From a virus, in the UHGV virus genome UHGV-0127437: a stretch of 51,462 nucleotides of DNA; one strand, given 5' to 3'. A program made the translations under genes and the position numbers. This document shows positions 1,316-50,737 of this stretch, piece after piece; positions within the stretch are counted from its first letter, which is position 1; each line of letters opens with the position of its first letter. The notes under the pieces were generated by a model. That model saw nothing but the letters and a program-made list of their open reading frames with translations. It was not told the origin of the DNA and made no database searches.

Positions 1316-1317
1316 AC

Positions 1318-1734: not shown

Positions 1735-1752
1735 GATAATCACCTTAATTGA

Positions 1753-1772: not shown

Positions 1773-2034
1773 TTATTGTATCAATGGCAGCGATCAAGTC
1801 TCTTAGAAGTACAACACGGTAAGTAACTGGCGTGAGGTGAAATTTAGTTTTGTGGGACATCATCGGCGACCTGCACTATCGAACGATCGCCAACTGGCCG
1901 CATCAGTGTCTTGCATACGCTCTGGTGAGTAAACTTGACGACCCTTCGCCTTTAACGCCCCTCTATCATGTATGTCGATCAAGTACCGCGTTAGTGCTAC
2001 ACTTGCACTCTTTCAGAATTCACTGATTTTTCAC

Positions 2035-31454: not shown

Positions 31455-31661
31455 TCACCCCCAGCCTTTTTGTCGGAAGGTTCTCGGCGTCCGCGCCGGA
31501 CGTTCGCACTCTTGTAATTTCGCGCTGACTGTCCAGGTCAGGAAATCAGGATTGAGGCTCTTTTTGGCTCTGACGCCGCGAGACTGATAATCGGCAATCA
31601 GGCGCTCTGCCTGCTCGGTGGTGCATTCCGTGTGGTGAAAATATGAATACTTCATCGCCAT
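31455..31661 (-). CDS. Hypothetical nin-region protein
   Basis: 68 aa starting at the ATG at 31661 (TGATG overlap with the upstream stop). The longer track ORF starts inside the upstream gene. Confidence 0.45.
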   Translation of the reverse strand: MAMKYSYFHHTECTTEQAERLIADYQSRGVRAKKSLNPDFLTWTVSAKLQECERPARTPRTFRQKGWG

Positions 31662-32260
31662 CACCCCGCAAAGCTCATAAGCTGGGCGGCGGCGTTCTCG
31701 GCCTCTTCCCTGCTGTTGAAGGTACGGGACAAGATCCAGCGCCACAGGACATCGAGTGCGGCCTTATACAGGTGCTGGAATTCGGTTTCGTCCATACTGG
31801 CGAACGCGATGCTGCGAGGGTGTTTGCGGAGCGTGCCATCTGGTAACTGTATGGCGTCAAAGTGACCGGCCTCGACAGTTACCCAGGCGCGGTAAGCGTC
31901 AAAGGATTTGCACAGGCTTATGCCGTTCGTGATACGGCGACTGGCGATCTGCTCCAGATACTGCTCGGCAGCGTCCAGCAGAGCGCTTTCATTGCCGCCG
32001 TATGAGGCAAGGAATCTGGCATAACCGTTAACGAGTTTGCGTTCATTCGAAGAAATAGCGCCGCCGGTTGGTTCCCAGTATTCGAACCCGAGATTCAGGA
32101 GCGCAAAGAAACGGCGATGAAACGCAGGATTGCGTACAAGTTTAAAGTCGGCAACCAGAACGGAGCCGAGCTTGCATTTTGATTGCAGAAAATCACTGGT
32201 CTCCGGCGTCGCGGGGATCAGGATTCCTGTTGACTGCTTAATGAGTTGTAATTGCGCCAT
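31661..32260 (-). CDS. DUF1367-like phage protein
   Basis: 199 aa. MAQLQLIKQSTGILIPATPET...FHRRFFALLNLGFEYW resembles a conserved lambdoid nin-region family. Confidence 0.55.
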   Translation of the reverse strand: MAQLQLIKQSTGILIPATPETSDFLQSKCKLGSVLVADFKLVRNPAFHRRFFALLNLGFEYWEPTGGAISSNERKLVNGYARFLASYGGNESALLDAAEQYLEQIASRRITNGISLCKSFDAYRAWVTVEAGHFDAIQLPDGTLRKHPRSIAFASMDETEFQHLYKAALDVLWRWILSRTFNSREEAENAAAQLMSFAG

Positions 32261-32663: not shown

Positions 32664-32897
32664 TTAGTAAAACCAGTCGTCGGCGCTTTCCCAGGTCTCC
32701 TGAAGAATCTCCTCAATGCGCTGCTTGTCCCCTTTTTCACCCCCCAGAATACTCAGGCCATCAGCCCCGGCGCGGCGAATTGTAAGTTTGACCCCTTCAT
32801 AGTTCTGGCTGAGCCTGCGTAACAGTTCGGCTTCTAATGCTGGCACTGCGCCATCAGGAAGTTTCTTTGTTCGATCAATAGTTAACTCAACTTTCAT
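32664..32897 (-). CDS. dinI: DinI-family DNA-damage-inducible protein
   Basis: MKVELTIDRTKKLPDGAVPALEAELLRRL...GGEKGDKQRIEEILQETWESADDWFY closely parallels E. coli DinI (...KEDKQRISEILQETWESADDWF). The ATG at 32897 has GGAGG upstream. Confidence 0.9.
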   Translation of the reverse strand: MKVELTIDRTKKLPDGAVPALEAELLRRLSQNYEGVKLTIRRAGADGLSILGGEKGDKQRIEEILQETWESADDWFY

Positions 32898-32915
32898 AGT
32901 GGCCTCCATTGCGTA

Positions 32916-33826: not shown

Positions 33827-34393
33827 CTATATGCTCAAGATAATAATATCACGCCCCAATAACACACTTACAATTGCGGGCCAATGACTAAAAATGAATA
33901 CAACCAAAGAGATGAGACATATTACAAAGATAATAATGCATAACCACTTCATTGAAAGGTATAATAACTCACCTCTTTTCACTCGCTTCCACTCTTTTTT
34001 TAATACATTATGGCTTGCCATGGTGAAATCATCGATATCTTCTTTTAAATCTGAAGAAGGTGTTCCAGAAGATACTTTAACATTAAGTAATTTAATGGCA
34101 TCTCTTAGAACAGTTTCTTCTCTTGAAGGTTTACTATGATTGAGCCTGAGATAAATTTCTGATTGAACTACTGTGATCCCTTTGTATGCAGATTTTCGTT
34201 CTTCATCTGAAACTTCCGAGTCTCTTCTCAATACATCATAAAATCCAAGCAGGTTTGAAAGAGCTTGCCTTAATTCAGAGATCCATGCCTGACGGAACTC
34301 AGATGTTTTTAGTTCCTTAGTAATAACAAGACTAATCATCGCGCCAATTGCGGCTAAAAATGCTATAATTACAGCAATGACAGGTTCATTCAC
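33827..34393 (-). CDS. Membrane protein with N- and C-terminal TM helices flanking a ~130-aa helical domain
   Basis: 188 aa with a GTG start. TM segments are VIAVIIAFLAAIGAMISLVI and LCIIIFVICLISLVVFIF. It is very AT-rich and divergent from the next operon. Confidence 0.55.
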   Translation of the reverse strand: MNEPVIAVIIAFLAAIGAMISLVITKELKTSEFRQAWISELRQALSNLLGFYDVLRRDSEVSDEERKSAYKGITVVQSEIYLRLNHSKPSREETVLRDAIKLLNVKVSSGTPSSDLKEDIDDFTMASHNVLKKEWKRVKRGELLYLSMKWLCIIIFVICLISLVVFIFSHWPAIVSVLLGRDIIILSI

Positions 34394-34495
34394 TTTTCTT
34401 ACCCCTAAAATAATTAGCCTAAAAGCTCCTGAAATCAGAATATCTAATCTTACTGGATATAAATTTAAAGATAGACTTTAAAGCCAAACCTAGTA

Positions 34496-34504
34496 TGTTA
34501 GAAT
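34496..34504 (+). promoter_or_regulatory. Extended -10 promoter element (TGtTAGAAT) for the membrane-protein/methyltransferase operon
   Basis: TG-n-TAGAAT lies 50 nt upstream of the ATG at 34555, with TTTAAA about 16 nt further upstream. Confidence 0.4.
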
Positions 34505-34554
34505 AACCTTTTAACAAGAAGTTTGTCGACATTTTAACGTAACCGAGAAGTAAA

Positions 34555-35136
34555 ATGAACGCTAACTCACAGCCAACGCCAGATCAAGAAATCAAGATCG
34601 AGGTCATCCGCTGGCATCAAAAACTCCAGGAAATCACCTACATCGAAGCTGGTCAACACATGCGTGCTTTGAACCAACTGATGTGGCAGATTCCAAGTCT
34701 GGTAATCGCCATTAATGGTGGGCTCTGGTATGCTGCTACACTAGTTAATGAAGCCTCACTTTGGATGATTTTTGCTTTTTTAACAGTTTTCGACCTGCTC
34801 ACTATTTGCACGCTTTTTCGACTTAGGGTTCTGATAGGAAAAAAAATAACCAAACAAAATGATATTGAAGAACTATCGAAAAATAGCATACTTCAAGACC
34901 TTAGTAATAAATCCGGCATAATAATCTCACCTACCCCAGCTCCTAAAAAAGAGAGCAAGTTCATTGTAGTTGGATGCTGGACCATATGCTTATTGCTCTG
35001 CGCTATTATTAATTTTCATGGCTCATTTAATCCGTCGATATTTTCAAAACCTAGCGAAAACAATAAGTCCGAACAAAACACAACTCACCTCATCTGTGTT
35101 TCTAAGACAGCACCCACAAATGGAGAAATAAAATGA
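34555..35136 (+). CDS. Three-TM membrane protein of unknown function
   Basis: 193 aa with GAGAAG upstream. Two adjacent TM helices follow an N-terminal amphipathic helix, and a third TM lies near residue 135. It is AT-rich. Confidence 0.6.
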   Translation: MNANSQPTPDQEIKIEVIRWHQKLQEITYIEAGQHMRALNQLMWQIPSLVIAINGGLWYAATLVNEASLWMIFAFLTVFDLLTICTLFRLRVLIGKKITKQNDIEELSKNSILQDLSNKSGIIISPTPAPKKESKFIVVGCWTICLLLCAIINFHGSFNPSIFSKPSENNKSEQNTTHLICVSKTAPTNGEIK

Positions 35137-35738
35137 CCACATGGAAATTTTATGATGACAATGCCTTACGTTTATTTAATGACTATCAATCCCTAAATTT
35201 TAAAGATATATTTTCTGACGTTGAATCCTACTTCCTTGCTTCCCGCGGAGATGCTCTGGACGTAGGTGCTGGTTCTGGAAGGGATTCTGCTGCTTTATTT
35301 AAAATGGGCTACAATGTAACAGCTGTAGAGCCAAGCGATAACATGCGAAATCTTGCGGCCGAAAATCATAAGCACTGTGATATTACTTGGGTCAATGATT
35401 CATTGCCTGAACTAAGAAAGATCACTCAATCACTAAAGACCTTTGACCTTATAATTGTTAGTGCAGTCTGGATGCACCTAAATGAAAACCAGCAGGAGAG
35501 GTCGTTATTTACTCTATTCAATCTTCTATCCGCCAATGGAGTTATGATCATTACATTGCGATTAGGGCCAGCCGAACCCGATAGACAAATCAGTGTGATT
35601 TACACAGAAGATTTAATTGCTCTTTCAAAAAAATTAGGGCTAACGGTTGAATATATTAGCCCTGTCAATACGGATAGTTTTAATAGACCATCCGTTACTT
35701 GGCAAAAAGTGGTTTTATCTAAAAAAACCACTTCATAG
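35133..35738 (+). CDS. Class I SAM-dependent methyltransferase (small-molecule/protein type)
   Basis: Motif I is ALDVGAGSGRDSAALFKMGYNVTAVEP and post-I is DLIIVSAVWMHL. There is no DPPY/NPPY DNA-MTase motif. It has an ATGA overlap with the upstream membrane ORF and GGAGAA as SD. Confidence 0.75.
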   Translation: MTTWKFYDDNALRLFNDYQSLNFKDIFSDVESYFLASRGDALDVGAGSGRDSAALFKMGYNVTAVEPSDNMRNLAAENHKHCDITWVNDSLPELRKITQSLKTFDLIIVSAVWMHLNENQQERSLFTLFNLLSANGVMIITLRLGPAEPDRQISVIYTEDLIALSKKLGLTVEYISPVNTDSFNRPSVTWQKVVLSKKTTS

Positions 35739-35744
35739 ATGCCA

Positions 35745-36989
35745 TTACTCACAAAGCCCATAACGTGATGAACAGACCTCGGTATTCAGGCTTGATTTGA
35801 CCAAGTCGTAGACTTTCCCCCCGCGACCTGTTTTGGCCCACTCCACAACTTCATCAACACTTGGCGAGTTCAGGTTTGCGCGAGGTCCATAGAACCCAGA
35901 CCAATCAATATGCTGCACCTCAGGTTCTAACCCATAGAGCTGCACATTTCTACCAAGGGGCAGGTCAAACGACTTCATCCAGCGCTGGTTTATCTCGCCA
36001 ACACTCATCCAGTGAACCCAGCGAGACGTTAGACGAACCTTCAGCTCCCACTCTTTGTGCTTCTCAATATGCTCCGGCCAGCGCGAAAATGTCTCAGCAA
36101 TTTCTTCTTTGTTACACAGCACGCAATTCATACAACCGACACGTGAGGCTCCCTGCGTGTAAAGCGGGTTTGGCGATATCCCGAAGTATTTGTGGAGCGC
36201 GAATACATCTGTGGCCGTCCACTGGTGAATGGGAAGGAAGTTATACAAAAAATCCGGGTCACGCTTGTCAGTGGAGAAGCGCTCATAGCTGGCTCTCTTT
36301 GATGACTCATCTGCCCGTACACCAGACCACTGGACGACCACGTCGCCATCATCCAGCATTGGTTGCAGAGCTTTATCAAAGGCGATCTGAATTTTGAGCT
36401 CATCGGTACAGAATCGGTCGCGAAGCATCGGAAATTTACCATGCAACAGTGCGCAGTCTAGAAAGCTATTTCCGCTTGGATGCATAACAGACAGAGCAGC
36501 ATCCAGCGCAGTTTCGAATTCAATTCCCCAACGCTCAGCAGTACGCAGCCAGGCCTGCCCAAACGCTGTATCGGAGCGGCCGAGTGAAGGCATAACAACA
36601 CCCCTATATGCCCCCATACGAATGGCCTGACGCTTAACCCAGTTCTTCTGGATGTATCCTCGGCGGCGTTCAAAATCAACCTCGGTATATATCCGCTTAA
36701 CAACCTGAACTGGCGCGCATCCAATCTGTTCATGGATAGTTTTTGCGAACTGTACGGTAAGCTCGTGTTCATTATCTGTATCAGCCATAACAGCCTGAAC
36801 TCTACCGCCAAACAATGCATGGGCAACTGCCAGAGTGGCCGTGCTGTCCTTTCCTGCTGAATAATTGACGACGATTTTGTGATCATCAGGGATGCGGAAT
36901 TCAGTGAGGTAGCGATTATAGGCCAATCCAATTTCGCGAATTTTTTCGCTGATGTCGGTCGGTGCAATAATCATTGCTGCGTTGCTCAT
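35745..36989 (-). CDS. PAPS-reductase-family PP-loop ATP pyrophosphatase (DndC/SspD/IbrA-like)
   Basis: 414 aa. PP-loop VVNYSAGKDST, plus the CysH-type C-terminal signature PIHQWTATDVFALH...NPLYTQGASRVGCMNCVLC. Confidence 0.75.
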   Translation of the reverse strand: MSNAAMIIAPTDISEKIREIGLAYNRYLTEFRIPDDHKIVVNYSAGKDSTATLAVAHALFGGRVQAVMADTDNEHELTVQFAKTIHEQIGCAPVQVVKRIYTEVDFERRRGYIQKNWVKRQAIRMGAYRGVVMPSLGRSDTAFGQAWLRTAERWGIEFETALDAALSVMHPSGNSFLDCALLHGKFPMLRDRFCTDELKIQIAFDKALQPMLDDGDVVVQWSGVRADESSKRASYERFSTDKRDPDFLYNFLPIHQWTATDVFALHKYFGISPNPLYTQGASRVGCMNCVLCNKEEIAETFSRWPEHIEKHKEWELKVRLTSRWVHWMSVGEINQRWMKSFDLPLGRNVQLYGLEPEVQHIDWSGFYGPRANLNSPSVDEVVEWAKTGRGGKVYDLVKSSLNTEVCSSRYGLCE

Positions 36990-37399
36990 AGCTTCACTCC
37001 ATGACGTAGTTGGGCGGTAAACTCTTTAGCCACCGTTGAATATGGATGTTCATGACAATCAAGGACTTTCAAACTGTCAGCAAACATCTCCACACCCTGA
37101 GCCCGAACTTCTGCCAGGTACGCGTCGGTTGCCGGGGTGATCATAGCTGCCACCGCGTCATCGATATGACAATCATCAATACCGCAAAAATTCGCCTCTT
37201 CACGGTTCGCGTTCAGGTGGCGAATGATCTTTTTGGCAGCCTTAAGCCCCGCATTCTCGGCAGCCAGCGCCGCGAGCTTGGCTTCCGATTCGGCAAGTTT
37301 CTTACGCAAACCAGTTTCACAGGTATGCGCGCCGCTGCGCCCCCTCTCAAAGGAGAATCCGCAGTCACAATAAAAAACGTTGTCTTTCTCGGTGATCAT
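36986..37399 (-). CDS. Ead/Ea22-like protein
   Basis: 137 aa with a Cys-rich N-terminus, a coiled coil and a C-terminal ...TPATDAYLAEVRAQGVEMFA typical of Ea22-like proteins. It has an ATGA overlap with the PAPS-reductase-like gene. Confidence 0.5.
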   Translation of the reverse strand: MITEKDNVFYCDCGFSFERGRSGAHTCETGLRKKLAESEAKLAALAAENAGLKAAKKIIRHLNANREEANFCGIDDCHIDDAVAAMITPATDAYLAEVRAQGVEMFADSLKVLDCHEHPYSTVAKEFTAQLRHGVKL

Positions 37400-37656
37400 G
37401 CAGCCGCCTTGTTGTGTGAAAAACGTTTCAGGTCAAAGTCGATAGTTGCCCGCAGGTCACGGAAGATTCCGCAGCGCCCGTGACGAACCAGGCCACCCTG
37501 CTCTACCGCTACGCGGAGATATTTCTCCGCTGTGGTCCGGTGCAGGCCGAACATCGCAACGACGTCATTCGTGGTGATGCGTCCCTGCTCCTTCACAAGT
37601 TCGATAATCCGGTTGATGATCAGGGTGCGTTCTTTGTCGGTTTTCTTTCTGGCCAT
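37396..37656 (-). CDS. Small winged-helix-like DNA-binding protein
   Basis: 86 aa (RIIELVKEQGRITTNDVVAMFGLHRTTAEKYLRVAVEQGGLV). Confidence 0.45.
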   Translation of the reverse strand: MARKKTDKERTLIINRIIELVKEQGRITTNDVVAMFGLHRTTAEKYLRVAVEQGGLVRHGRCGIFRDLRATIDFDLKRFSHNKAAA

Positions 37657-37659: not shown

Positions 37660-38346
37660 TTATTCCCTCCCTGTCAGCTGCTGAACGAGATTTCTGTGGC
37701 GACCAATAACACGAACCGCGTCACGCAGTTTGGTCAGTTGCTCCAGCTTGTTTCTGGTGCGGCGGATTTCGCGAGAAATGTCCCGCACCGCTGGTACCGC
37801 TTCGACTGCGGCGCGCCCTTCAGTGAACGAGGGGATTTCACTCACGATCTGTTCGACCGGTTTTGCTTCTTCCGGCGCGGCAGGTGCCTCCGGTACCGGT
37901 TCTTGCTTAACGGGTTCTGTCACAACAGCAAGGGACCAGGTAACGCCTTTGCCCTTCCCGTTCTTCACCACAACGCCCTGGCGCTCCAGCGCGCGAAGAA
38001 CAGAGACCATTCCGCGGGCATTGCGATTGACGGCCGCGGCCAGCGAAACGGTCGTCATTGCCCCCTGCTCACGCAGCTGCTGTCGGACGACATCAGGATC
38101 TACGGGTTCCGGCTCCTCACCTTTCAGGCGCGGCGCCGGATGAACAGGTGCATTAGGCGTTGACTGCTGAGACTGACCTTTCACGGTACCGAGGAACCAG
38201 CCGCCGTCTCCAAAATCGCATAACCCCTGATCACGCTGCTCACGTAACATGGTGAGCGCATCAACCGGGTCGATTTCAAGACGGTCAGCAACTTCGCGGT
38301 ATGTCGCCCGCCCCATTTTTTCCAGTACCTGAATTACGGTTTCCAT
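37660..38346 (-). CDS. DUF1627-like protein with two winged-helix-like segments and a Pro/Glu-rich linker
   Basis: The ATG at 38346 has GAGGAA upstream. It lies immediately after P, as in many lambdoid prophages. Confidence 0.5.
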   Translation of the reverse strand: METVIQVLEKMGRATYREVADRLEIDPVDALTMLREQRDQGLCDFGDGGWFLGTVKGQSQQSTPNAPVHPAPRLKGEEPEPVDPDVVRQQLREQGAMTTVSLAAAVNRNARGMVSVLRALERQGVVVKNGKGKGVTWSLAVVTEPVKQEPVPEAPAAPEEAKPVEQIVSEIPSFTEGRAAVEAVPAVRDISREIRRTRNKLEQLTKLRDAVRVIGRHRNLVQQLTGRE

Positions 38347-38357
38347 GTGATTTCCTC

Positions 38358-39047
38358 TCAAATCAGTCCAGCGTCTTTTCGCTGTTTGTATTTCGCCATC
38401 AGCATCTGCGCCGGAGTCGGGCCTCGATCCTGATCTGGTGCGGTAAGTGCCCGACGTACTGGTGGAACTGGTTTCCCATCGAGAACACGCATTTCCCAGT
38501 CGTGGAGTAAATCGCCAGCAACGCGAACAAGCTCTTTCTCGCTGAGCTGGCCGTCAGTACCGCGTCTGCGCAGTTCAAGGCAAATGTGATAGAGCACGGG
38601 CTGGCTCCACGGGTATTGCTCACTGGTCGGGTAGCGAAAAACCAGCTTTCGCCAGCGCCAGTATTCGCTCATGATGTCGTCCACACTGACCCCCAGCGCG
38701 CCACTCCCCTCACGGCACCACGAAATAAACTGACCCGGCGACGGCCAGAACGGTGACTGACTGGATCGGGCTTTCTGCATTCCGGCTGAAAGCTGCTCAC
38801 GGGAGGTGATGCCTGACTCAGCAAAAGCGGCGATCCATTGCTGCTTTGCAACGCGAATATCATCGCCAGTACGTAGGTTCGTCTGAGTGGATGCCGGAAA
38901 TACCTGCATGAGATTTTCAAAAAGCATATCCACCAGCTTTTCAGCGTCACTGTTAACAACCTTACGGCCGTCGTAAGAATCTCCAGCCATGCGCGATAGC
39001 ATTTCGCTGTCGCGATTCTGAATTGCACGATAAAGATCCGGGGTCAT
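38358..39047 (-). CDS. Replication protein P (DnaB helicase loader, lambda P-like)
   Basis: ...QWIAAFAESGITSREQLSAGMQKARSSQSPFWPSPGQFISWCRE aligns with lambda P (...QWVLAFRENGITTMEQVNAGMRVARRQNRPFLPSPGQFVAWCRE). It has an ATGA overlap with the O stop. Confidence 0.9.
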   Translation of the reverse strand: MTPDLYRAIQNRDSEMLSRMAGDSYDGRKVVNSDAEKLVDMLFENLMQVFPASTQTNLRTGDDIRVAKQQWIAAFAESGITSREQLSAGMQKARSSQSPFWPSPGQFISWCREGSGALGVSVDDIMSEYWRWRKLVFRYPTSEQYPWSQPVLYHICLELRRRGTDGQLSEKELVRVAGDLLHDWEMRVLDGKPVPPVRRALTAPDQDRGPTPAQMLMAKYKQRKDAGLI

Positions 39048-40042
39048 AAAAATTTCTCCCATGCTTCAGCACTGTTCCAGTGCGGGCCGGTTTCGGATTT
39101 GCTTGCGCTGACATCTGCGCGTGGCTTGCGGGTAGTGTCTTCACGGTGAAGGGTTAACGTGTCCCACTTGGCGCGGAGCTTTGCGGGGGAGAGAATATTT
39201 TTGTACCAGAACGAGTCTTTGCAGGCCCATCTGAACAACTCACAAATCTCTTTGTGGGTGCGTCCGTCCAGCTGGCGCATCAGGCGTATGTCATTCGCCC
39301 AGCCAGCCATGTTTGGTTTTTTCAGGGATGGTTTGGTGATGTCACGCAGCGCCAGCATCCACTCTGCGCAGCGGAGATCGTCAGATGTCCCCCACTTGTC
39401 ACCTTTCGGAGTCTGGACTGCTGCATCAGGAACAACTTTGGAAATTCTCTGACGTACATTAAATACGTTAGTATTTAATATATATTGTTCATGATGTGCG
39501 CTTGTTTGTGCGGATGTATGTGCGCTTTCATGTGCGCTACCTACCGCCAAACCCGCGCCGTTACTGGCTTCGCCATGTGCGGGCATATGTGCGCTGGTAT
39601 GTGCGGAAGTTTGTGCGGGCAAATTGTCCATTTTTTGAGCATATTCGGCATAATTTGAGATCGTGATCACACGCCCTCTTTGCCGCTCCCCTTCAATGGA
39701 AATCATCCCTTCACGCACAAAAAACGTCAGCATTCTCTCAACAGCATCACGGCTTGTTGGGTTGCCTTTTCTGTCACGTAGTTTCAGGCCCAGATCGGCC
39801 GCCGTGGTCACCAGTTGTCCGGTTTGTAGCGGCCATTGGCGACCTTTAAAGCTCGCTGTGTATGGCTGGCTGGCAGCGCCCAAAAGCAGGTTATCCCACA
39901 ACGTACGCAGGTAAACATCTTCTGACCAGGGCTGCTTGAGTACACTCCGGTACAACGGGATGAATCCGGTCTTCTGGTTTTCCATCCGGTTGCTCCTGAC
40001 GGCGGTACGCGCCGCAAAATCGGCGTAGGCGACATTCGACAT
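39044..40042 (-). CDS. Replication initiator O-like protein (contains the origin)
   Basis: 332 aa upstream of P. Its N-terminal winged-helix region is followed by a (T/Q)SAH repeat linker encoded by the iterons. Confidence 0.8.
   Translation of the reverse strand: MSNVAYADFAARTAVRSNRMENQKTGFIPLYRSVLKQPWSEDVYLRTLWDNLLLGAASQPYTASFKGRQWPLQTGQLVTTAADLGLKLRDRKGNPTSRDAVERMLTFFVREGMISIEGERQRGRVITISNYAEYAQKMDNLPAQTSAHTSAHMPAHGEASNGAGLAVGSAHESAHTSAQTSAHHEQYILNTNVFNVRQRISKVVPDAAVQTPKGDKWGTSDDLRCAEWMLALRDITKPSLKKPNMAGWANDIRLMRQLDGRTHKEICELFRWACKDSFWYKNILSPAKLRAKWDTLTLHREDTTRKPRADVSASKSETGPHWNSAEAWEKFL
39495..39617. repeat. Origin iterons: 8 copies of TGTGCG on a 12-bp register, in two clusters of four, next to an AT-rich tract
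   Basis: TGTGCG starts at 39495, 39507, 39519, 39531 and at 39576, 39588, 39600, 39612. The AT-rich block 39441-39490 adjoins them, giving lambda-ori-like geometry inside O. Confidence 0.8.
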
Positions 40043-40421: not shown

Positions 40422-40964
40422 TCACATGACACCCGGCGCTATGGCCGCGATACCACTCAGAACCTGAACGACAGCATCACCCGGCAACATATTCAGCAGA
40501 TGCTCAATCCCTTCCCTGACCTCTTTCACCAGCTGATGCTTTGGCGCATTCAGCATTACGGCCTGTTTCGCCTCGCTGATTTCCTTCTCCATCGCTGCAA
40601 AACGCGTCATGAAACAATCCTGTCCGATAAGACGCCCACGAAATTCCATCGGCAAAACAGCCAGGATTGCAGGAGTCAGCTGGCGGATGTTTTCGCGCGC
40701 ATATCCGGTATCACTGTCCAGCCAGCGGAAAAGCTTCTGCCGCTTACGGCTCAAGTCATCAGGAAAATCCAACCCGGCGCCGCCCTGCCGTTCCCATTCT
40801 TCAACGATGATCCCGGCGACTACGTCCTGGTTGTCCAGCGATGCCGACCACGCACGAACGGCAGCACGAATCTGGTCATGCTTATCCGCCGGATCAGGCT
40901 GATTGCGATTTATCATCGTGGCCGGAGGAAACCCGGTATTTTGTTGAAATGAAATTGAATGCAC
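40422..40964 (-). CDS. YdaT-family protein (functional CII analogue in Rac/CP-933P-type immunity regions)
   Basis: ...EEWERQGGAGLDFP...LFRWLDSDTGYARENIRQLTPAILAVLPMEFRGRL parallels E. coli YdaT (...EEYLRQGGGELP...YHRWLKGETKTQREKIQKLIPAILAILPRELRHRL). The GTG start lies 2 nt after the cro stop. Confidence 0.7.
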   Translation of the reverse strand: MHSISFQQNTGFPPATMINRNQPDPADKHDQIRAAVRAWSASLDNQDVVAGIIVEEWERQGGAGLDFPDDLSRKRQKLFRWLDSDTGYARENIRQLTPAILAVLPMEFRGRLIGQDCFMTRFAAMEKEISEAKQAVMLNAPKHQLVKEVREGIEHLLNMLPGDAVVQVLSGIAAIAPGVM

Positions 40965-40966
40965 GG

Positions 40967-41200
40967 TTACGCCCTCGCTTCCTGCGCCGGTAATCCATCC
41001 GTTGGGTTCGGATACAGATCAGGGCGCAATTCGTGAGGGGTAACACCGGTTATGCTGTGAATTTTTAATATGTAATCTGGCGGCACAATGCCTCTGTCGC
41101 GATGTTTCCAATGGCTAATTGACATACTGGTTACACCAAGTGCCATGCTTAACTTTCTCGCTGAACCAGCAGCCTTAATTGCTTTATCAAGTGCTGTCAT
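40967..41200 (-). CDS. Cro-like / YdaS-type HTH regulator
   Basis: 77 aa. The HTH is ARKLSMALGVTSMSISHWKH. It is the first gene of the rightward (here minus-strand) early operon and has AGGAGA as SD. Confidence 0.75.
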   Translation of the reverse strand: MTALDKAIKAAGSARKLSMALGVTSMSISHWKHRDRGIVPPDYILKIHSITGVTPHELRPDLYPNPTDGLPAQEARA

Positions 41201-41227
41201 TTTCTTCTCCTAACTATCAACGAAGAA

Positions 41228-41256
41228 AGTAAACCACAGATTTATATTTCAAGCAA
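41228..41256 (-). promoter_or_regulatory. PR candidate (TTGCTT-N17-TTTACT) with operator OR-a (41228..41246) covering the spacer and -10
   Basis: It has the same geometry as PL: -35 element, 4 nt, then a 19-bp operator whose last 6 nt form the -10. The OR-a plus-strand sequence is agtaaaccacagatttata. Confidence 0.5.
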
Positions 41257-41274
41257 TATTCAATTTATTGAGTG

Positions 41275-41293
41275 TGTAAACTAACCATTTACA
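41275..41293. promoter_or_regulatory. Operator OR-b (tgtaaactaaccatttaca)
   Basis: 19-bp palindrome TGTAAA-N7-TTTACA, 47 bp from OR-a and 9 nt upstream of the repressor ATG. Confidence 0.55.
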
Positions 41294-41301
41294 ATGAGAG
41301 A

Positions 41302-41685
41302 ATGAGAAAAGAAGAACCCAACAAAGCATTGATAGCGCGACTCAATGAGGTCTATGCCAGAGGCATTACCAAAGCAGATATGGCGCGAATAGCCGGAGTC
41401 TCGCCTCAGGCGGTCAATAGCTGGTTTAAAAAAGGCGTTATTAGCAAAAAATCAGCACTGGCTATAGCCGATGCTGTTGGCGTTTCGATCGCCTGGCTAC
41501 TCGGGGAAGATGTCGGCGAGAAAGATGGTATGAAGCCCGACGAGCAGCGCCTGCTGGAACTCTATCGCCAGTTGCCGGAAGAAGAGCAGCAGAACATGTT
41601 GCGGATCGTGTCTCTGCGCCTTAAGGAACTCGACGAGCTGTACGCCAAGTACATGGGACGGCGGATTAAGGGTGATGCGGAATAA
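41302..41685 (+). CDS. Prophage repressor (CI-like HTH) lacking an S24 autocleavage domain
   Basis: 127 aa from the ATG at 41302. The HTH_3-type segment is ITKADMARIAGVSPQAVNSWFKKG, followed by a short helical C-terminus. It is divergent from cro. Confidence 0.75.
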   Translation: MRKEEPNKALIARLNEVYARGITKADMARIAGVSPQAVNSWFKKGVISKKSALAIADAVGVSIAWLLGEDVGEKDGMKPDEQRLLELYRQLPEEEQQNMLRIVSLRLKELDELYAKYMGRRIKGDAE

Positions 41686-41771
41686 CTCCCCACGGAGAGC
41701 TTATGAGGCTGGGTATTGCACATAGGCCATACGAACCACCTCTGGGTAGAAAACTTAAATAAAATTTAATA

Positions 41772-42692
41772 GTGGGAATGGTAATGGAAGCACCTTATCA
41801 ATTAGAATTCACTGAAAACATTTATTATTCAATAGGTAATAACCCCAGCATTAAAGAAATCATTGAGTCTCTTCAAGGCTGGGAAGCTATTATCAAACAA
41901 TCTAAAGGAGTCCTTGCAGAGCTAACTGGAAGTGATATCCTGGATATTGAAGTTAGGGTTCAAAAGTTAGAAGTCGGGAGCCTAACTGAAAAAATTCTTA
42001 TCAAGTTAGGTTTTGGCAACGAAGAGAATTTTGATAAATTTCTCGAAAATGCGCATGAAAGGTACATCGGAGAAGGAAAAATGCGTAGCGCCTTAGTTTG
42101 GACGGTTATAGCAGGTGTACTCGCCACGGGTATGTATTTAGCCGTCAAAAACATGGCACCCAATAATGCCTCCCACTTCGAAGCAAATAATAATATAATC
42201 ATTAACATAGGTGCTGGCGAAACTAACATTTCACCTGAAAGAATACAGTCGGTGCTCAATAGTACATTAGTTGATAAAAAAACCGCTGCCAAAGGTGCTG
42301 TCAAAATTTTATCTCCAGCGCGAAATGACGAAAATGCAACATTAATGATAGGTAGCGATAACACTTCCGTAACAATACCTTCAGATTTAATCTCTAAAAC
42401 ACCAACCGAGGTTAGTTTTGAAGCTGATACATATACTCGAGACCATTACGATGTTGACCTTGAGATAAGAGCTCTTGATCTCGACAATCCGACAAAGGGA
42501 TGGGCTGCCGTGATTCCTGGCTTAGTTGATCGAAGGGTAAAACTAGTTTTGGCACCCGGGATTAAACCAGAAGACCTATCCCATAAATTCGCCTTCCGCG
42601 CTGATGTAACCATTACTTATAAACTTACGTCATCTAAAGGCGAAGCATACAAGCCAACAGAAATATTTTTAAGCAAATTAATCGCGGAATGA
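41772..42692 (+). CDS. Unrecognised single-pass membrane protein co-oriented with the repressor (rex/sie position)
   Basis: About 302-306 aa, with possible starts at GTG 41772, ATG 41778 or ATG 41784. It has a central TM (ALVWTVIAGVLATGMYLAV), is AT-rich, and ends at a terminator. Confidence 0.65.
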   Translation: MGMVMEAPYQLEFTENIYYSIGNNPSIKEIIESLQGWEAIIKQSKGVLAELTGSDILDIEVRVQKLEVGSLTEKILIKLGFGNEENFDKFLENAHERYIGEGKMRSALVWTVIAGVLATGMYLAVKNMAPNNASHFEANNNIIINIGAGETNISPERIQSVLNSTLVDKKTAAKGAVKILSPARNDENATLMIGSDNTSVTIPSDLISKTPTEVSFEADTYTRDHYDVDLEIRALDLDNPTKGWAAVIPGLVDRRVKLVLAPGIKPEDLSHKFAFRADVTITYKLTSSKGEAYKPTEIFLSKLIAE

Positions 42693-44392: not shown

Positions 44393-44680
44393 ATGGAAAT
44401 CGTAAAAATCGAAATGAACCTGAAAGCAGTGAATAAAGAATTGGCTGTATTCAACTGCGAGAAGAAAGTATCAGGCGTTATTCATTCAGCCGAAACGGGC
44501 GCGGTCACGGTCATTCTTGACGGTGGCTATGTATTCGGCAAGTTCGACTGTCCTCTTTGTGCTGTAGAGGCAATTTCAATGCTGTCCGTAAAAGTAAGTG
44601 ATGGCGATAACGCCGGGTTTGGCAACTACCGCAGCTACAAACTCGATTACTCAGAAAAGGTTTTCAGCACCGTTCATTAA
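44393..44680 (+). CDS. Hypothetical early-left protein
   Basis: 95-aa ORF with GGAGAAG as SD. Confidence 0.5.
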   Translation: MEIVKIEMNLKAVNKELAVFNCEKKVSGVIHSAETGAVTVILDGGYVFGKFDCPLCAVEAISMLSVKVSDGDNAGFGNYRSYKLDYSEKVFSTVH

Positions 44681-44686
44681 GCAAAA

Positions 44687-44703
44687 GCCCACACGAAGTG
44701 GGC
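44687..44703 (+). promoter_or_regulatory. boxB-like hairpin GCCCAC-ACGAA-GTGGGC
   Basis: 6-bp GC stem with a pentaloop, in an 127-nt gap before the recE-like gene. It shares CACGAAGT with a PL-leader hairpin. Confidence 0.3.
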
Positions 44704-44807
44704 CTGCCCGTCCGGCGTCACCGACCAAAGCGAACCGGACATTTCTACCTGGTAAAACCGAGGTGCCATTAAGGCGCCTCCATTCTACACGAATTGAGGA
44801 TAAAATA

Positions 44808-47720
44808 ATGAGTGGAACTAATCCTGTATTTTTAGTCCGCAAAGCAAAGAAATCATCAGGCCAGAAAGATGCAGTTCTCTGGTGCAGCGATGATCTTGAA
44901 GCGGCAAATGCCACACTGGATTATCTCCTGATTAAATCCGGCGCAAAGCTGAAAGATTATTTTAAAGCTGTTGCCACTAATTTCCCCGTCGTTAACGAGC
45001 TTCCGCCAGAAGGCGAACTCAGCTTAACGTTCTGCGATTTCTACCAGCTTGGAAGCGACAACATGACCTGGGCGCAGATCCCCGGTGTTACGTTGCCCTC
45101 TTCTGATGCTGCCGCCGAAGCACGTCAGCATATCGTTAACGGTGTTGATACCGAAACAGGTGAAGTGCTGGAAGATCACACAGAAGAAGTTGTTGATACC
45201 GAAACTGGCGAAATTACCCAGCACGAACAGCCGTCAACTGAAGACAATGGCGATCGACCTGAACACCCTCAGTTAACTGTTGTGGCAACGATGCCCTTCC
45301 GTCATCGCGTTCTGGCTCAACATATTGGCGATGGCGAGTATCTCTATCATGTCGATGAAGAGCAGAAAAAAGCAATTCTCGCTCTGGAAATGGACACTGA
45401 TAACTCATATGTCCAGAACCTTTTACTTGCGTCTGAGAATGTTGAACCATTCAAAAAGGCCATTGAACACGATATCCATAAAGCGGTAAATGCTGTTAAG
45501 AACGTGTTTCCTGCCGATGGCAAAATCCCTGAGCTGGCAAGCGTTATCCAGTTTCTGAAAACATGGTTCGATACCCCTCATATTGATCGCGGGCTGCTCG
45601 TTAAAGAGTGGTGCAAAGGTAATCGTGTATCAGCTATTCAGCGTACTGAAAGCGGCGCGAACGCTGGCGGCGGAATTGCATCCGATCGCAAAATGCCCCA
45701 GACCACTCTCGGTCTTGAATTTGAAATAGCCTTAGGCCTGCTGGCGCGTCAGTATGAATTTGATATTTATTCTCTGCCATTGCAGATCGAACTAAAGGCT
45801 AATTCAATCATGAACGCAGTTGACGACCCTGAGTGGCTGGCAACGCGCGAACTGTTCGTGTCAATGCCTGGTGGTCTGGACTATTCCCGCGCATGCATCG
45901 TTGCAACGGTAAAAACCACACCAGATGAACTGTACAAATCCCCATTTCGCCACCGCGAGTACCTGAATAAGGTGCTGACAGAAACTGACCATGCCAATCC
46001 CGATCCGCTTGTCGTTGATATTGCCTGCGGACGTTCGTCCATGCCTATGCCAACGCCAGTAAGACAGGATGAACCATCCGTTGAAGAAGTAAACCGACAA
46101 CTCGCAGCTGCGCGCGGTGATTACGTTGAAGGTATCAGTGACCCTAACGATCCGAAGTGGGTTCATGAAGACTACAACGCCGCCTCAAATGAGGGAGAAA
46201 AAACGGAAAATGAGGACGTCGCCGATGTGCAGGTTCAAGAAACTGACGGTAATGAAGAACAGGCTGGTGATGCGCTGCGTACAAGCGAAAGCGATCTGGG
46301 GAATGGTGAAGAAGCAGATACCGGCGAACAAGCCGATGTAGACCACAATCAACCGGAAGTGAGCCAGAACAACGATTCTGCAAGCCATTCTGAGCCAGAA
46401 GCGCAACAGGAAGAACCAATGCCAGTGTGGCCGGAATACTTCGAGCCGGGGCGTTATGAAGGCGTACCGAACGAGGTATATCACGCGGCGAATGGCACCA
46501 GTTCGACGATGGTAAAAGATGCCCGGGTATCGCTGATGTATTTCGAGGCGCGCCACGTATCCAAAACCATCCAGAAAGAACGCACCAAAGTCCTGGATAT
46601 GGGGAATCTGGTGCACGCGCTGGCATTACAGCCTGAACAACTGGAAAAAGAGTTCAGCATCGAGCCGGAAATCCCGGAAGGTGCGCTCACGACGACAGCG
46701 ACGATCCGCGCGGTTATCGACGAACACAACGCCAGCCTGCCGGCATTACTCACCGCAGACGATATCAAAGCGTTGCTGGAAGAATACAACGCCACCCTGC
46801 CCGCGCCATTACCGCTTGGGGCATCCGTTGACGAAGCGTATGCGTCATATGAGCAACTCCCGGAAGAGTTCCAGCGCATCGAAAACGGGACTAAGCATAC
46901 AGCAGCGGCAATGAAGGCCTGCATCAAAGAATACAACGCCACCCTGCCGCCGCAGGTGAAAACCAGCGGAAGCCGTGACGCGCTGCTTGAGCAACTGGCG
47001 ATCATCAACCCTGACCTGGTCGCACAGGAAGCACAGAAGCCACAGCCGTTGAAAGTATCCGGCACCAAAGCGGATCTGATTCAGGCAGTGAAATCCGTCA
47101 AACCTGAAACAGTGTTTGCCGACGAGCTGCTTGACGCATGGCGCGAAAACCCCGGCGATAAAATTCTGGTTACCCGCCAGCAGTTGAGCACCGCGCAGGC
47201 CATCCAGAAAGCGCTGCTGAATCACCCGACCGCCGGGAAGCTGCTGACGCATCCGAACCGCGCCGTAGAGGTGAGCTATTTCGGTATTGATGAGGAAACC
47301 GGGCTGGAAATCCGCGTGCGCCCAGACCTTGAAATCGACATGGGCGGCCTGCGCATCGGTGCGGACCTGAAAACCATCAGCATGTGGAATATCAAGCAGG
47401 AAGGCCTGCGCGCCAAACTGCACCGGGAAATCATCGAGCGCGATTATCACCTGAGCGCTGCCATGTACTGCGAAACCGCAGCGCTGGACCAGTTTTTCTG
47501 GATATTCGTCAACAAAGACGAGAACTACCACTGGATCGCCATCGTCGAGGTATCCGAAGAGTTGCTGGAACTCGGCATGCTGGAATACCGCAAAGCAATG
47601 CGCGCCATAGCGAACGGGTTCGACACTGGCGAATGGCCAGCGCCGATTACCGAAGATTACGCCGAAGAACTCAACGATTTTGATGTGCGCCGCCTTGAAG
47701 CGCTGCGCGTACAGGCATAA
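44808..47720 (+). CDS. recE: RecE-like exonuclease VIII (C-terminal PD-(D/E)XK domain) with a long N-terminal extension
   Basis: 970 aa from the ATG at 44808 (GAGGA SD). The C-terminus (...GVPNEVYHAANGTSST...IRVRPDLEID...GADLKTIS...YHLSAAMYCE) fits the RecE-type nuclease. It lies immediately upstream of the annealase. Confidence 0.65.
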   Translation: MSGTNPVFLVRKAKKSSGQKDAVLWCSDDLEAANATLDYLLIKSGAKLKDYFKAVATNFPVVNELPPEGELSLTFCDFYQLGSDNMTWAQIPGVTLPSSDAAAEARQHIVNGVDTETGEVLEDHTEEVVDTETGEITQHEQPSTEDNGDRPEHPQLTVVATMPFRHRVLAQHIGDGEYLYHVDEEQKKAILALEMDTDNSYVQNLLLASENVEPFKKAIEHDIHKAVNAVKNVFPADGKIPELASVIQFLKTWFDTPHIDRGLLVKEWCKGNRVSAIQRTESGANAGGGIASDRKMPQTTLGLEFEIALGLLARQYEFDIYSLPLQIELKANSIMNAVDDPEWLATRELFVSMPGGLDYSRACIVATVKTTPDELYKSPFRHREYLNKVLTETDHANPDPLVVDIACGRSSMPMPTPVRQDEPSVEEVNRQLAAARGDYVEGISDPNDPKWVHEDYNAASNEGEKTENEDVADVQVQETDGNEEQAGDALRTSESDLGNGEEADTGEQADVDHNQPEVSQNNDSASHSEPEAQQEEPMPVWPEYFEPGRYEGVPNEVYHAANGTSSTMVKDARVSLMYFEARHVSKTIQKERTKVLDMGNLVHALALQPEQLEKEFSIEPEIPEGALTTTATIRAVIDEHNASLPALLTADDIKALLEEYNATLPAPLPLGASVDEAYASYEQLPEEFQRIENGTKHTAAAMKACIKEYNATLPPQVKTSGSRDALLEQLAIINPDLVAQEAQKPQPLKVSGTKADLIQAVKSVKPETVFADELLDAWRENPGDKILVTRQQLSTAQAIQKALLNHPTAGKLLTHPNRAVEVSYFGIDEETGLEIRVRPDLEIDMGGLRIGADLKTISMWNIKQEGLRAKLHREIIERDYHLSAAMYCETAALDQFFWIFVNKDENYHWIAIVEVSEELLELGMLEYRKAMRAIANGFDTGEWPAPITEDYAEELNDFDVRRLEALRVQA

Positions 47721-47732
47721 GGGGGAATAACA

Positions 47733-48821
47733 ATGTCCAATTTAGTCGCCACCACTGAAAACCAAACTCAGAAAATCGACAACGTTTCTATCCTGACGAA
47801 CGGGGAACTGTTCAACCGCCTGCGCACGCTTTCGGAGGTAATGGCCAACAGTGGAAACTTCGTCCCAGATCATTACCGGGGGAAACCGGACGCCTGCATG
47901 GCTGTTGTGATGCAGGCTGCGCGCTGGGGCATGGATCCTTTCGCTGTAGCGCAAAAGACTTTCATCGTCGGGAATTCCGGTGTGCTTGGTTATGAAGCGC
48001 AGCTGGTTAATGCGGTGATCAACACTATGGCCCCCACTAAGGATCGTATCCACTTTGAATGGTTCGGCGAATGGGAAAATATCGTTGGACGGTTCGTGGA
48101 GAAGACAAGCAGCCAGAATAAAAAGTACATCGCGCCGGGCTGGAATTTGAAAGACGAAGCTGGCGTGGGCGTTCGCGCCTGGGCAACGCTTAAAGGTGAA
48201 TCTGAACCGCGCGAGCTGGTCCTGATGCTTTCGCAAGCACAGGTACGCAATTCAACATTGTGGGCAACCGACCCACGCCAGCAGTTAGCCTATCTCGCCG
48301 TTAAACGTTGGGCGCGTCTCTACTGCCCCGACGTGATTCTCGGGGTTTATACCGCCGATGAGATTGACGAGCGTGAGGAGAAGGTAATCAACCCCTCGTC
48401 TGTTGAAAGGGTCACCATTGATGAGATTGCCAGCAGTGCGCGCACGACAGCCAGCGCGCAGGAATCAACTAAAAACATCGATCAGTTAGCCGACGATCTG
48501 CGTGACCGCATTGAAAAAGCAATGACGGTCGACCAGGCAAGCGCTATCCGCGGTGAAATCGAGACCGAAAAACCAATACTTGGCACAGCTCTATACACGG
48601 AACTGAAAAATAAGGCCGTTCGTCGTTATTACCTGGTCGATCACCGCAACCGGGTGGAAGCGGCTATCAATGCCCTGCCTAACCCGGGCGAACCAGAAGC
48701 GGCAGAACTGTTTGCTAAAGCTGAAGGCGTTCTCAATGCCGCCAAACGTCACTTGGGCGATGAACTGTACGACCAGTTCCGCATCACCCTGGACGACATG
48801 AAACCGGAATACGTGGGCTAA
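47733..48821 (+). CDS. recT: RecT/Red-beta-superfamily single-strand annealing protein
   Basis: ACMAVVMQAARWGMDPFAVAQKTFIV and WATDPRQQLAYLAVKRWARLYCPDVILGVY parallel the Bet motifs (IALLIVANQYGLNPW and WQSHPKRMLRHKAMIQCARLAFGFAGIY). Confidence 0.7.
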   Translation: MSNLVATTENQTQKIDNVSILTNGELFNRLRTLSEVMANSGNFVPDHYRGKPDACMAVVMQAARWGMDPFAVAQKTFIVGNSGVLGYEAQLVNAVINTMAPTKDRIHFEWFGEWENIVGRFVEKTSSQNKKYIAPGWNLKDEAGVGVRAWATLKGESEPRELVLMLSQAQVRNSTLWATDPRQQLAYLAVKRWARLYCPDVILGVYTADEIDEREEKVINPSSVERVTIDEIASSARTTASAQESTKNIDQLADDLRDRIEKAMTVDQASAIRGEIETEKPILGTALYTELKNKAVRRYYLVDHRNRVEAAINALPNPGEPEAAELFAKAEGVLNAAKRHLGDELYDQFRITLDDMKPEYVG

Positions 48822-48861
48822 GGGAGGCGGGAGGGCGGCCCCTCCCGTCACAGGGGGTTAT

Positions 48862-49101
48862 ATGCGCCTTATCAATCGCAGTAAGCAATCTCCGTTAGGT
48901 CGTCGGGCATGCGATGCAGCACTGGCAAAGCATGTTGAGCTTTACGGGGAGTTTGGCCGACAGAAAACAAAGACCACTTATACCGTGGCGGTCGACGGCG
49001 TGAAGGTGACAGTAGAAGTTGTTAACCGACATAAGAGCTATGTCGCCACCGCAATGACAGGTATGCGCCGACTGCGCGCACTGCCAGGGCAGATTGCCTG
49101 A
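48862..49101 (+). CDS. Hypothetical protein
   Basis: 79-aa ORF between recT-like and xis. Confidence 0.4.
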   Translation: MRLINRSKQSPLGRRACDAALAKHVELYGEFGRQKTKTTYTVAVDGVKVTVEVVNRHKSYVATAMTGMRRLRALPGQIA

Positions 49102-49124
49102 TAACGAATTATCAATGTCACAAC

Positions 49125-49150
49125 ACCGGCGCATCTATACTGGCGCCGGT
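49125..49150 (+). promoter_or_regulatory. 8-bp perfect hairpin upstream of xis
   Basis: ACCGGCGC-atctatactg-GCGCCGGT with no T-tract. It could be a processing or attenuation structure in front of xis-int. Confidence 0.3.
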
Positions 49151-49165
49151 TACCTGAGGTGAACC

Positions 49166-49381
49166 ATGTCACAGGTAATTTTTAACGAAGAGTGGGTTGT
49201 TGAGTCCAGACTTACCGAAAGAACAGGACTTACTGAAGGACAGATTAAAAATTATCGCCAGAAACTATGGGTTGAAGGTGTTCACTTCAAGCGCCTTACT
49301 GCGCTTGGACAGACTGACAACTCTAAAGGTCTGCTTTGGTACAACTACCCGAAGATTAATCAGTTAGTTCAGGATGCTTAA
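49166..49381 (+). CDS. xis: Excisionase-like protein (DUF1233/e14-type)
   Basis: 71 aa directly upstream of int and overlapping it. EWVVESRLTERTGLTEGQIKNYRQKLWVEGVHFKR resembles e14-type excisionases. Confidence 0.65.
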   Translation: MSQVIFNEEWVVESRLTERTGLTEGQIKNYRQKLWVEGVHFKRLTALGQTDNSKGLLWYNYPKINQLVQDA

Positions 49382-50667: not shown

Positions 50668-50737
50668 TTTCATAGCGCTGGTTTCAATCCACACAATCAG
50701 CGTTAAACTACTAATACCGTTAATTTAGGGAGAAAAG

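Follow-up and report, generated by a model that had tools for sequence, protein, structure and literature searches.

Phosphorothioation is the only known DNA-backbone modification system, and synthesis of the phosphorothioate is reported to require a protein with a 3'-phosphoadenosine-5'-phosphosulfate (PAPS) reductase domain together with a P-loop nucleoside triphosphatase (NTPase), isolates without the NTPase being free of phosphorothioate (PMC12914056). The PAPS-domain proteins DndC and SspD of the Dnd and Ssp systems, and BrxP, in which the PAPS domain is fused to DUF4007 and which is encoded with brxC/pglZ/brxL, have in common the PAPS-reductase fold, a canonical ATP PP-loop and cysteine ligands. 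Phage-encoded 'PAPS reductases' are very common; the classic genes for Orf84 of phage 186 and NinC of phage lambda have been of obscure function for decades and are usually dismissed as part of sulfur metabolism. Here we describe a 414-residue enzyme of this fold, with a canonical PP-loop and candidate cysteine ligands, encoded in the 51,462-nucleotide virus genome UHGV-0127437 (the window, i.e. the whole stretch of DNA that was analysed), which corresponds to a prophage of lambdoid (Rac/lambda-like) type in Citrobacter koseri ATCC BAA-895; the identical protein is encoded in the genome of this strain (CP000822) and in further assemblies with the same prophage region. The enzyme gene alone is ordinary, because its family is common and already annotated. 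It is accompanied by a pair of genes for a membrane protein and a methyltransferase, and the same pair adjoins dnd and ssp genes in bacteria.

A phage protein with a PAPS domain has an experimental precedent in counter-defence. In work on podophages of Vibrio crassostreae, a sensitive phage that had been given the gene for a 479-residue fusion of a PAPS domain and Dam, along with the gene next to it, became able to grow on a host with dndFGH-dependent resistance (10.1101/2021.05.05.442762). In Vibrio phage 44E38.1 the fusion is p0018, and the anti-Dnd effect was seen for p0018 and p0019 (of unknown function) together. A survey from 2026 lists PAPS reductases among the genes of anti-defence operons under Aca control (PMC13551039). 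For the Orf84 clade, no functional study was found in the literature, in which Orf84-type proteins are usually treated as products of sulfur-metabolism genes, and a preprint on the defence hotspots of P2/186 phages does not mention PAPS reductases.

The enzyme and its relation to Orf84, NinC and named systems

The enzyme gene (35745..36989, minus strand) was delimited by open reading frame (ORF) calling and its product assigned with Pfam and PHROG. The protein is a member of the PAPS-reductase superfamily (PAPS_reduct, PF01507; 84.3 bits against a cut-off of 22.5, E = 1.3e-23, residues 38-290) and matches PHROG 424 ('PAPS reductase') with E = 6e-65. Within this superfamily it belongs, as one of the enterobacterial long forms, to the clade of phage 186 Orf84 (CP84), with 35% identity between its residues 40-414 and residues 14-334 of Orf84 (BLASTP, E = 4e-57). 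The two proteins have in common the PP-loop, the motifs ADTxNEH, FCxxELK, GVRxxES and GCMxC, and a C-terminal CSSxYGxCE tail, and the enzyme differs from Orf84 in a 39-residue N-terminal extension, an insert of ~45 residues (~118-160) and a variable insert (~330-372). Both genes lie in an early operon and adjoin replication genes, that of Orf84 upstream of gene A and that of the enzyme in a lambdoid nin region. According to the 186 record, Orf84 is non-essential, and translation of the replication protein A depends on Orf84 being translated to its end. The clade is large: homologues of Orf84 with E ≤ 1e-10 form at least 6189 clusters at 90% identity, and a profile search with E ≤ 1e-30 yielded 555 clusters at 50% identity.

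The sequence motifs are all encoded on the minus strand and could be read from the translation. The canonical PP-loop SAGKDS, an ATP pyrophosphatase motif already named in an earlier sequence-based account of the locus (hereafter the preliminary description), occupies residues 44-49 (36843..36860); at its position, the HMMER alignment places the degenerate loops SFGIQAA and SFSGAED of the sulfonucleotide reductase structures 6vpu and 2goy. It is followed by FCTDELK (36393..36413), GVRADES (36303-36323), CMNC (36123..36134) and the C-terminal tail CSSRYGLC (35751..35774). Invariance was counted over 47 long-form and 186-type sequences, and was found for S44, G46, K47, D48 and S49 of the PP-loop, which reads SGGKDS at family level, for D70, E74, H75, C194, G223, V224, R225, E228 and S229, and for the cysteines C286 and C289 of CMNC and C406 and C413 of the tail, the latter two also in the 186-type sequences; Cys292 is not conserved. 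CMNC, or GCMxC in the family alignment, aligns (HMMER) to IGCEPC and IGCAPC of the APS (adenosine 5'-phosphosulfate) reductases 2goy and 7lhr. In APS reductase the cysteines of this CxxC are ligands of the [4Fe-4S] cluster. The signature NPLYTQG...RVGCMNCVLC, which the preliminary description called CysH-type, is present, but its type is that of the CxxC of APS reductases and DndC, as E. coli CysH has no cysteine at this position. Judged by motif order rather than by coordinates, Cys194 of FCTDELK would be the equivalent of the CC motif (CCxxRK) of APS reductases, and is a candidate third Fe-S ligand. In the predicted model the tail is disordered (residues 389-408 and 411-414 with a predicted local distance difference test score <50), and the fold is equally close to the tRNA thiolases TtuA and NcsA and to APS reductases; sequence searches of the PDB with the enzyme returned just weak partial matches. 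These features suggest an ATP-dependent adenylating enzyme with a three-cysteine Fe-S site and a mobile tail bearing a cysteine pair, as in sulfur-transfer PP-loop enzymes.

Lambda NinC, which is non-essential (nin5 deletion), has the same fold and the same order of motifs (hhalign probability 97%, E = 1e-10, 189 columns), and shares with the enzyme the PP-loop, the motifs DTGxEH, FCTDxLK and GIRADE, and a location in the nin region. It has 290 residues, is 26% identical to the enzyme and lacks the cysteine-pair tail; the cysteines of its CxxC are offset by one step and pair with Cys289 and Cys292 of the enzyme. Furthermore, its gene comes after NinB in lambda, whereas the enzyme gene comes before NinB (31661-32260), which lies further downstream in the window; no NinC gene was seen after NinB in this prophage. 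As the likeness is distant, at 26% identity, the two proteins are assigned to related clades and not to the same family. NinC-like genes (ninC at 41081-41953 in lambda) were found in 541 phage records, including those of Stx phages and many Vibrio phages.

Towards the PAPS-domain proteins of named systems the enzyme shows partial matches, namely 62 bits to SspD of PADLOC (E = 1e-17, residues 183-329 only), 54 bits to BrxP (E = 2e-15, residues 219-309), ~30 bits to a DndC system model (E = 2e-8), and 32.2 bits, against a cut-off of 290, to DndC of TIGR03183 (residues 187-264 only). The PP-loop enzyme of PAPS-reductase fold with DndC/SspD/BrxP likeness that the preliminary description recognised thus holds, at 84 bits for the fold itself. 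Unlike DndC, SspD and BrxP, the enzyme is phage-borne in a lytic operon. Judged by the models and criteria of the respective families, identities as DndC, SspD, BrxP, CysH or IbrA were rejected. The partners of such proteins were sought in the window by tblastn with neighbour proteins of the relatives, by a motif scan and by a Pfam scan of the 45 other ORFs (best 25 of 45 families): this found no ParB-like protein (IbrB included), Dam, MT-A70, Dcm or cysteine desulfurase, and, among the called genes and the best 25 of 45 Pfam families, no dndD or dndE (P-loop NTPase and ribbon-helix-helix protein, respectively) and no BREX genes, while the called genes around the enzyme include none for DUF4007 or SspC. 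The lack of desulfurase, IbrB and BREX genes agrees with the preliminary description.

The enzyme gene is the last in a chain of overlapping or tightly spaced genes comprising O (39044-40042), P (38358-39062), DUF1627 (37660-38361), DUF977/Ren-like (37396-37656) and a 137-residue ORF (36986..37399, minus strand), and from this position at the end of the chain it is assigned to the rightward early (pR-type) operon, at the location of the lambda nin region. The 414- and 137-residue ORFs and the ATGA overlap between them were confirmed: at the junction ...GTG AAG CTA TGA, the ATG overlaps the TGA. The characterisation of the upstream ORF as Ea22-like did not survive. The Pfam scan of the 137-residue protein returned no family, PF13935 included; it matches PHROG 492, 614 and 368, each of unknown function, and just its C-terminal ~65 residues resemble the C-terminus of P22 EaE (about 48% identity). 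Among the compared loci the full-length protein is found only in C. koseri prophages, with weak partial matches in two others, and in relatives the gene upstream of the enzyme encodes DUF4752, an exonuclease, Dam, a ParB protein with helix-turn-helix (ParB-HTH) or other proteins. A true Ead/Ea22 protein (PF13935) does stand upstream of one relative (L115), and the 137-residue protein does not align with it. Since the ORF is restricted to its lineage and has no Pfam family, the 'Ea22-like' coupling carries no functional signal, and the ORF is regarded as a lineage-specific neighbour, not a conserved partner.

The membrane-protein/methyltransferase pair in phages and in phosphorothioation islands

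Convergent with the enzyme gene, with the stop codons 6 bp apart, lies the gene of a 201-residue class I S-adenosylmethionine (SAM) methyltransferase of small-molecule (TehB/UbiE-like) type (35133..35738, plus strand; Pfam Methyltransf_25/11/12/23, TehB), with a GC content of 38% against 50% for the enzyme gene. The closest PDB entries to the methyltransferase are PH0226, TehB and GNMT, and no (D/N)PP(Y/F) motif was found in its translation; an assignment as PADLOC mad2 was discarded, the match being limited to the generic methyltransferase domain. Coupled to this gene by an ATGA overlap is that of a 193-residue membrane protein (34555..35136, plus strand) with hydrophobic segments at residues ~66-94 and ~133-157. 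Neither Pfam nor PHROG scans gave anything significant for this protein and 22 homologues, and no PADLOC model matches it; two of the homologues are labelled DUF4231 and DUF202 in UniRef, which these scans did not reproduce. The AT-rich divergent intergenic region in front of the pair (34394..34554) is its likely promoter region; it contains a promoter-like TTTAAA-16-TAGAAT with upstream TG (34477-34504, plus strand) and a second site on the minus strand (34529-34500), although such sites are only suggestive, as their number is no higher than in shuffled sequence. In the related E. coli phi458 group (L067, L070, L069, L011), the longest ORF of the membrane protein includes, close to the N-terminus, a poly-Q stretch in frame that is 5, 7 or 9 residues long.

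An E. coli prophage, phage phi458 and many viral contigs have the same pair in convergent orientation immediately behind the enzyme gene; in phi458 the whole trio is found after exo near int, and not in a nin region. When viral contigs were searched from the methyltransferase side, a PAPS-like gene was present in 20 of the 24 loci, being the direct convergent neighbour in 19 and lying ~2.5 kb away in one (L155). In three of these loci (L156-158) the pair goes with a short 186-type gene of 33% identity that closes an ERF-SSB operon. Exceptions were L153, L152 and L162, of which L153 is the clearest. Pairwise identities of enzyme and methyltransferase correlate with a Spearman coefficient of 0.68 over 11 loci, which are not independent of each other. 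We propose that enzyme and pair form a mobile three-gene cassette.

Homologues of the membrane protein number ~234 and reach into beta- and gamma-proteobacteria. For 11 of these the bacterial genomic context was looked up; in all 11 the methyltransferase follows the membrane protein, and in all 11 phosphorothioation genes adjoin the pair. The bacterial orthologues are 38-45% identical to the methyltransferase of the window over the full length, and 36-44% to the membrane protein. In Chromobacterium and Microvirgula the pair lies beside dndB, dndC (PAPS_reduct, 492 residues), dndD and dndE; in Chitinimonas, Methylotenera and one metagenome it lies beside genes for a DUF4007 protein (SspB), a protein of 1134-1144 residues, a PAPS_reduct protein of 275 residues (SspD) and a HATPase protein. 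Burkholderia anthina has an HNH nuclease, an 857-residue protein and then DndE, while in Luteimonas genes for DndB and a cysteine desulfurase lie no more than 7 kb away. In three further loci the neighbours are large FtsK-domain proteins, with or without a desulfurase, which would be DndFGH-like according to the description of DndH variants in PMC10853773. Three distinct clades within the PAPS-reductase fold, i.e. DndC, SspD and the phage Orf84-like proteins, thus have a link to the pair, which we regard as the best new indication of what the enzyme in the window does. The preliminary description had called the enzyme stand-alone and abutting a methyltransferase island; the abutment stands, with an AT-rich methyltransferase gene whose stop codon is 6 bp away, but 'stand-alone' fits only in part, as the pair recurs as a companion (20/24 viral loci, 11/11 bacterial look-ups). 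Nor had that description included the membership in the Orf84 family, the kinship with NinC or the published anti-Dnd precedent of a phage PAPS-domain protein.

The comprehensive phosphorothioation papers that were searched do not mention a membrane-protein/class I methyltransferase partner, and the link of the pair to Dnd and Ssp appears not to be described in the literature searched; we flag the pair as an undescribed accessory module of bacterial Dnd/Ssp islands. A typing paper on Erwinia amylovora reports a class I SAM methyltransferase of 442-463 residues between dndEDCB and dptFGH and gives no functional interpretation; it may be a fused relative. The E. amylovora protein carries a variable poly-Asn tract.

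Gene neighbourhoods were compared for 109 related loci, of which 84 gene orders were left once redundancy was removed. Early recombination or replication operons repeatedly close with the enzyme gene, which follows bet-exo, ERF-SSB or RecT and precedes the 186 A gene or O-like genes. Genes with DNA-methyltransferase catalytic motifs, of the types Dam/D12, MT-A70 and Dcm, are enriched directly next to it, at position -1 (10/81) and +1 (9/83), as compared to ~2% farther off. One Aeromonas protein is an MT-A70::PAPS fusion beside Nmad5 and DUF4406 genes, in phage phiE125 the PAPS-like gene is preceded by a methyltransferase gene and followed by a ParB-like one, and in Agrobacterium phage Rivra methyltransferases flank the PAPS-like gene on both sides. 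ParB-HTH proteins precede the enzyme gene in three relatives (L061, L093, L119). In the Aeromonas prophage (L008, 6357-10094) the genes stand in a row of DUF4406, Nmad5, a 232-residue unknown protein and the MT-A70::PAPS-like fusion, which looks like a nucleotide or DNA-modification cluster.

Proposed role and alternative readings

Our preferred reading, put forward tentatively and with somewhat less than even confidence, is that of an early-lytic accessory PP-loop/Fe-S enzyme with a phosphorothioation-linked DNA chemistry that serves counter-defence, the pair being its conserved, mechanistically unexplained partner. The phosphorothioation-linked role is derived from the occurrence of the pair with Dnd/Ssp islands, from the relatives adjacent or fused to DNA methyltransferases, and from the one fusion that is reported to defeat Dnd. 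The gene would be a non-essential delayed-early accessory gene, and its product would adenylate its substrate using ATP, hold a [4Fe-4S] cluster by Cys194, Cys286 and Cys289, and relay sulfur or redox equivalents through Cys406 and Cys413 of the flexible tail, with a cysteine desulfurase of the host as the source; the replicating phage DNA might thereby escape Dnd/Ssp-type or other modification-dependent restriction by the host. The shared conserved pair and the DNA-methyltransferase links thus tie this enzyme clade to phosphorothioation biology and make Dnd/Ssp counter-defence a testable hypothesis; if it is true, a new phage-side player and a new component would be added to the phosphorothioation system. 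A further-reaching version, which we consider unlikely, is that the pair is a universal, previously unrecognised accessory of PAPS-fold DNA sulfurtransferases (DndC, SspD and the phage Orf84-like enzymes), and the prophage cassette a minimal, NTPase-independent writer, editor or masker of a phosphorothioate-type mark on DNA; the pair might then, for instance, add a methyl group to the sulfur of the phosphorothioate or of an intermediate, or serve as a membrane-located sensor of the modification. An action of the enzyme on a carboxymethyl-cytosine handle was also considered and dropped, because that pathway uses an unrelated AMP-forming ligase (PMC12783734).

Several observations weigh against the preferred reading. 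None of the models for DndC, CysH and APS reductase gives the enzyme a score anywhere near its cut-off, the ligation of an Fe-S cluster is suggested by motifs, and the non-essential Orf84 of 186 has no known phenotype according to the record. In the window, tblastn, the motif scan and the Pfam scan (best 25 of 45 families) found no P-loop NTPase (of DndD, SspC or BrxC type), nickase, DndE or DNA-targeting partner; phosphorothioate synthesis is reported to need such an NTPase (PMC12914056). The methyltransferase of the pair, to judge by its sequence, is of small-molecule type and not a DNA methyltransferase. About 75% of the long-form relatives of the enzyme are without the pair; conversely, on the lambdoid contig L153 (4326-5597) the pair is convergent with lambda P and O, with no PAPS-like gene. 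The pair is convergent in every phage locus and has a GC content of 35-40% as compared to 47-54% for the enzyme gene (10-15 points), and both the orientation and the AT-richness would also fit an independently regulated moron. Finally, p0018 and the relatives of the enzyme are alike as phage PAPS-domain proteins linked to a DNA methyltransferase (MT-A70, Dam or Dcm, fused or adjacent); the enzyme in the window, unlike p0018, is neither fused nor adjacent to one, and the two may or may not share a clade. A tblastn search for the p0018 fusion recovered a 263-residue clade and the NinC clade, and not the fusion.

Among the alternatives, two are rather improbable, to a similar degree, and survive best. 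The three genes could be a prophage defence (superinfection exclusion) module, in which the enzyme marks self DNA or makes a sulfur signal, and the products of the pair, made in the lysogen from a separate promoter, provide the sensor and the membrane effector that counter incoming phages. Like prophage morons, the pair is AT-rich, has a putative promoter of its own and runs opposite to the lytic operon; its bacterial counterparts lie in defence islands beside Dnd, Ssp and DndFGH-like genes, and, as in many abortive-infection effectors, one of its products is a small membrane protein. However, the location of the enzyme gene in the lytic early operon would keep it from being expressed together with the pair, no PADLOC model matches the membrane protein, most relatives of the enzyme do without the pair, and the experimental precedent is one of anti-defence, not of defence.

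Alternatively, the substrate might be something other than DNA. The enzyme would then act on a tRNA base or a small molecule, by thiolation or another kind of activation; the resulting sulfur (or Se/Te) product or by-product would be methylated by the TehB-like methyltransferase, and its export or anchoring would fall to the membrane protein. The methyltransferase is indeed closest to small-molecule methyltransferases (TehB, UbiE-like, GNMT, PEAMT), the equal proximity of the enzyme fold to TtuA, NcsA and the APS reductases is compatible with such a substrate, and 3 of 23 membrane-protein homologues have weak matches to TauE/SafE sulfite exporters; yet the best of these has an E-value of 0.002, far below threshold, and both the company of the enzyme relatives, which are adjacent or fused to DNA methyltransferases, ParB-HTH and Nmad5, and that of the pair in bacteria, i.e. 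DNA phosphorothioation systems, point to DNA.

Less probable again is that the enzyme truly stands alone and that the methyltransferase island is an unrelated moron at a downstream recombination hot spot. The GC gap of 10-15 points and the convergent orientation agree with this, as do the variable slot downstream of the enzyme gene, filled elsewhere by an A gene, MT-A70, O-like genes or small ORFs, and the contig L153 with its pair and no enzyme. Against it stand the 19 direct convergent PAPS-like neighbours in 24 loci and the one at 2.5 kb, which occur with enzyme clades just 33-39% identical and in different phage types and positions, and in bacteria DndC and SspD have this very pair as a companion; chance insertion fails to explain a linkage to three clades of one fold.

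An IbrA/YbdN-type co-activator, which would regulate prophage or host genes with a ParB-like IbrB as partner, is very improbable. Both IbrA/YbdN and the enzyme have a PP-loop PAPS_reduct domain, the phi458 orthologue is annotated as a 'putative transcriptional regulator', and some relatives have ParB-type neighbours, upstream in L061, L093 and L119 (ParB-HTH) and downstream in phiE125 (ParB-like). YbdN, however, carries DUF3440 (E = 3e-32), which the enzyme lacks, the hhalign match between them covers only 58 columns with a probability of 83%, and the ParB-like proteins that adjoin some relatives, used as tblastn queries, gave no match in the window; the overlooked IbrB of which the preliminary description had warned did not turn up. 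Least credible of all is the usual annotation and literature reading as an auxiliary metabolic gene, a CysH-like PAPS/APS reductase boosting sulfate assimilation of the host during infection, for although it shares its fold and the motifs GVRxxES and NPLY with sulfonucleotide reductases, the enzyme has a canonical ATP PP-loop instead of their degenerate loop, scores far under the cut-offs of TIGR00434 (32 bits against 165), TIGR02055 (42 against 235) and PRK02090 (49 against 154), lacks the ECGLH tail that is a feature of CysH and APS reductases, and keeps the company of DNA-related rather than sulfur-assimilation genes.

Further features of the prophage

Divergent from the pair lies the gene of a 188-residue membrane protein (33827..34393, minus strand) with a GC content of 35% and hydrophobic segments at the N- and C-terminus; it belongs to no family, was found only in C. 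koseri prophages, and is a doubtful member of the cassette. Between the AT-rich island and NinB is a DinI-like gene (32664-32909, minus strand). In a megablast search the region had no match in the phage collection, and only ~79% identity in 15 E. coli genomes.

The left end of the window (50-1743, minus strand) is taken up by a umuD/umuC-like pair (Peptidase_S24 and IMS/IMS_C/DUF4113, a Y-family polymerase), the Peptidase_S24 match probably belonging to the 141-residue ORF at 1318-1743. It is followed by a gtrA/gtrB/gtrC-like cassette for O-antigen glucosylation, i.e. lysogenic conversion (1972-4909, plus strand), which comprises GtrA_DPMS_TM, Glycos_transf_2 and a 532-residue membrane protein, in surroundings with a GC content down to 34-35%. 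The immunity region is Rac-like (40422-41685), with YdaS/YdaT-like genes (40967-41200 and 40422-40964, minus strand) opposite a CI-like helix-turn-helix repressor (41272-41685, plus strand). Within 44598-51412 (plus strand) lie a Rac-type recE (Exonuc_VIII, 1040 residues), recT and the integrase gene (49381-50667), after which a host OmpR-type response regulator (50738-51412) marks the end of the prophage.

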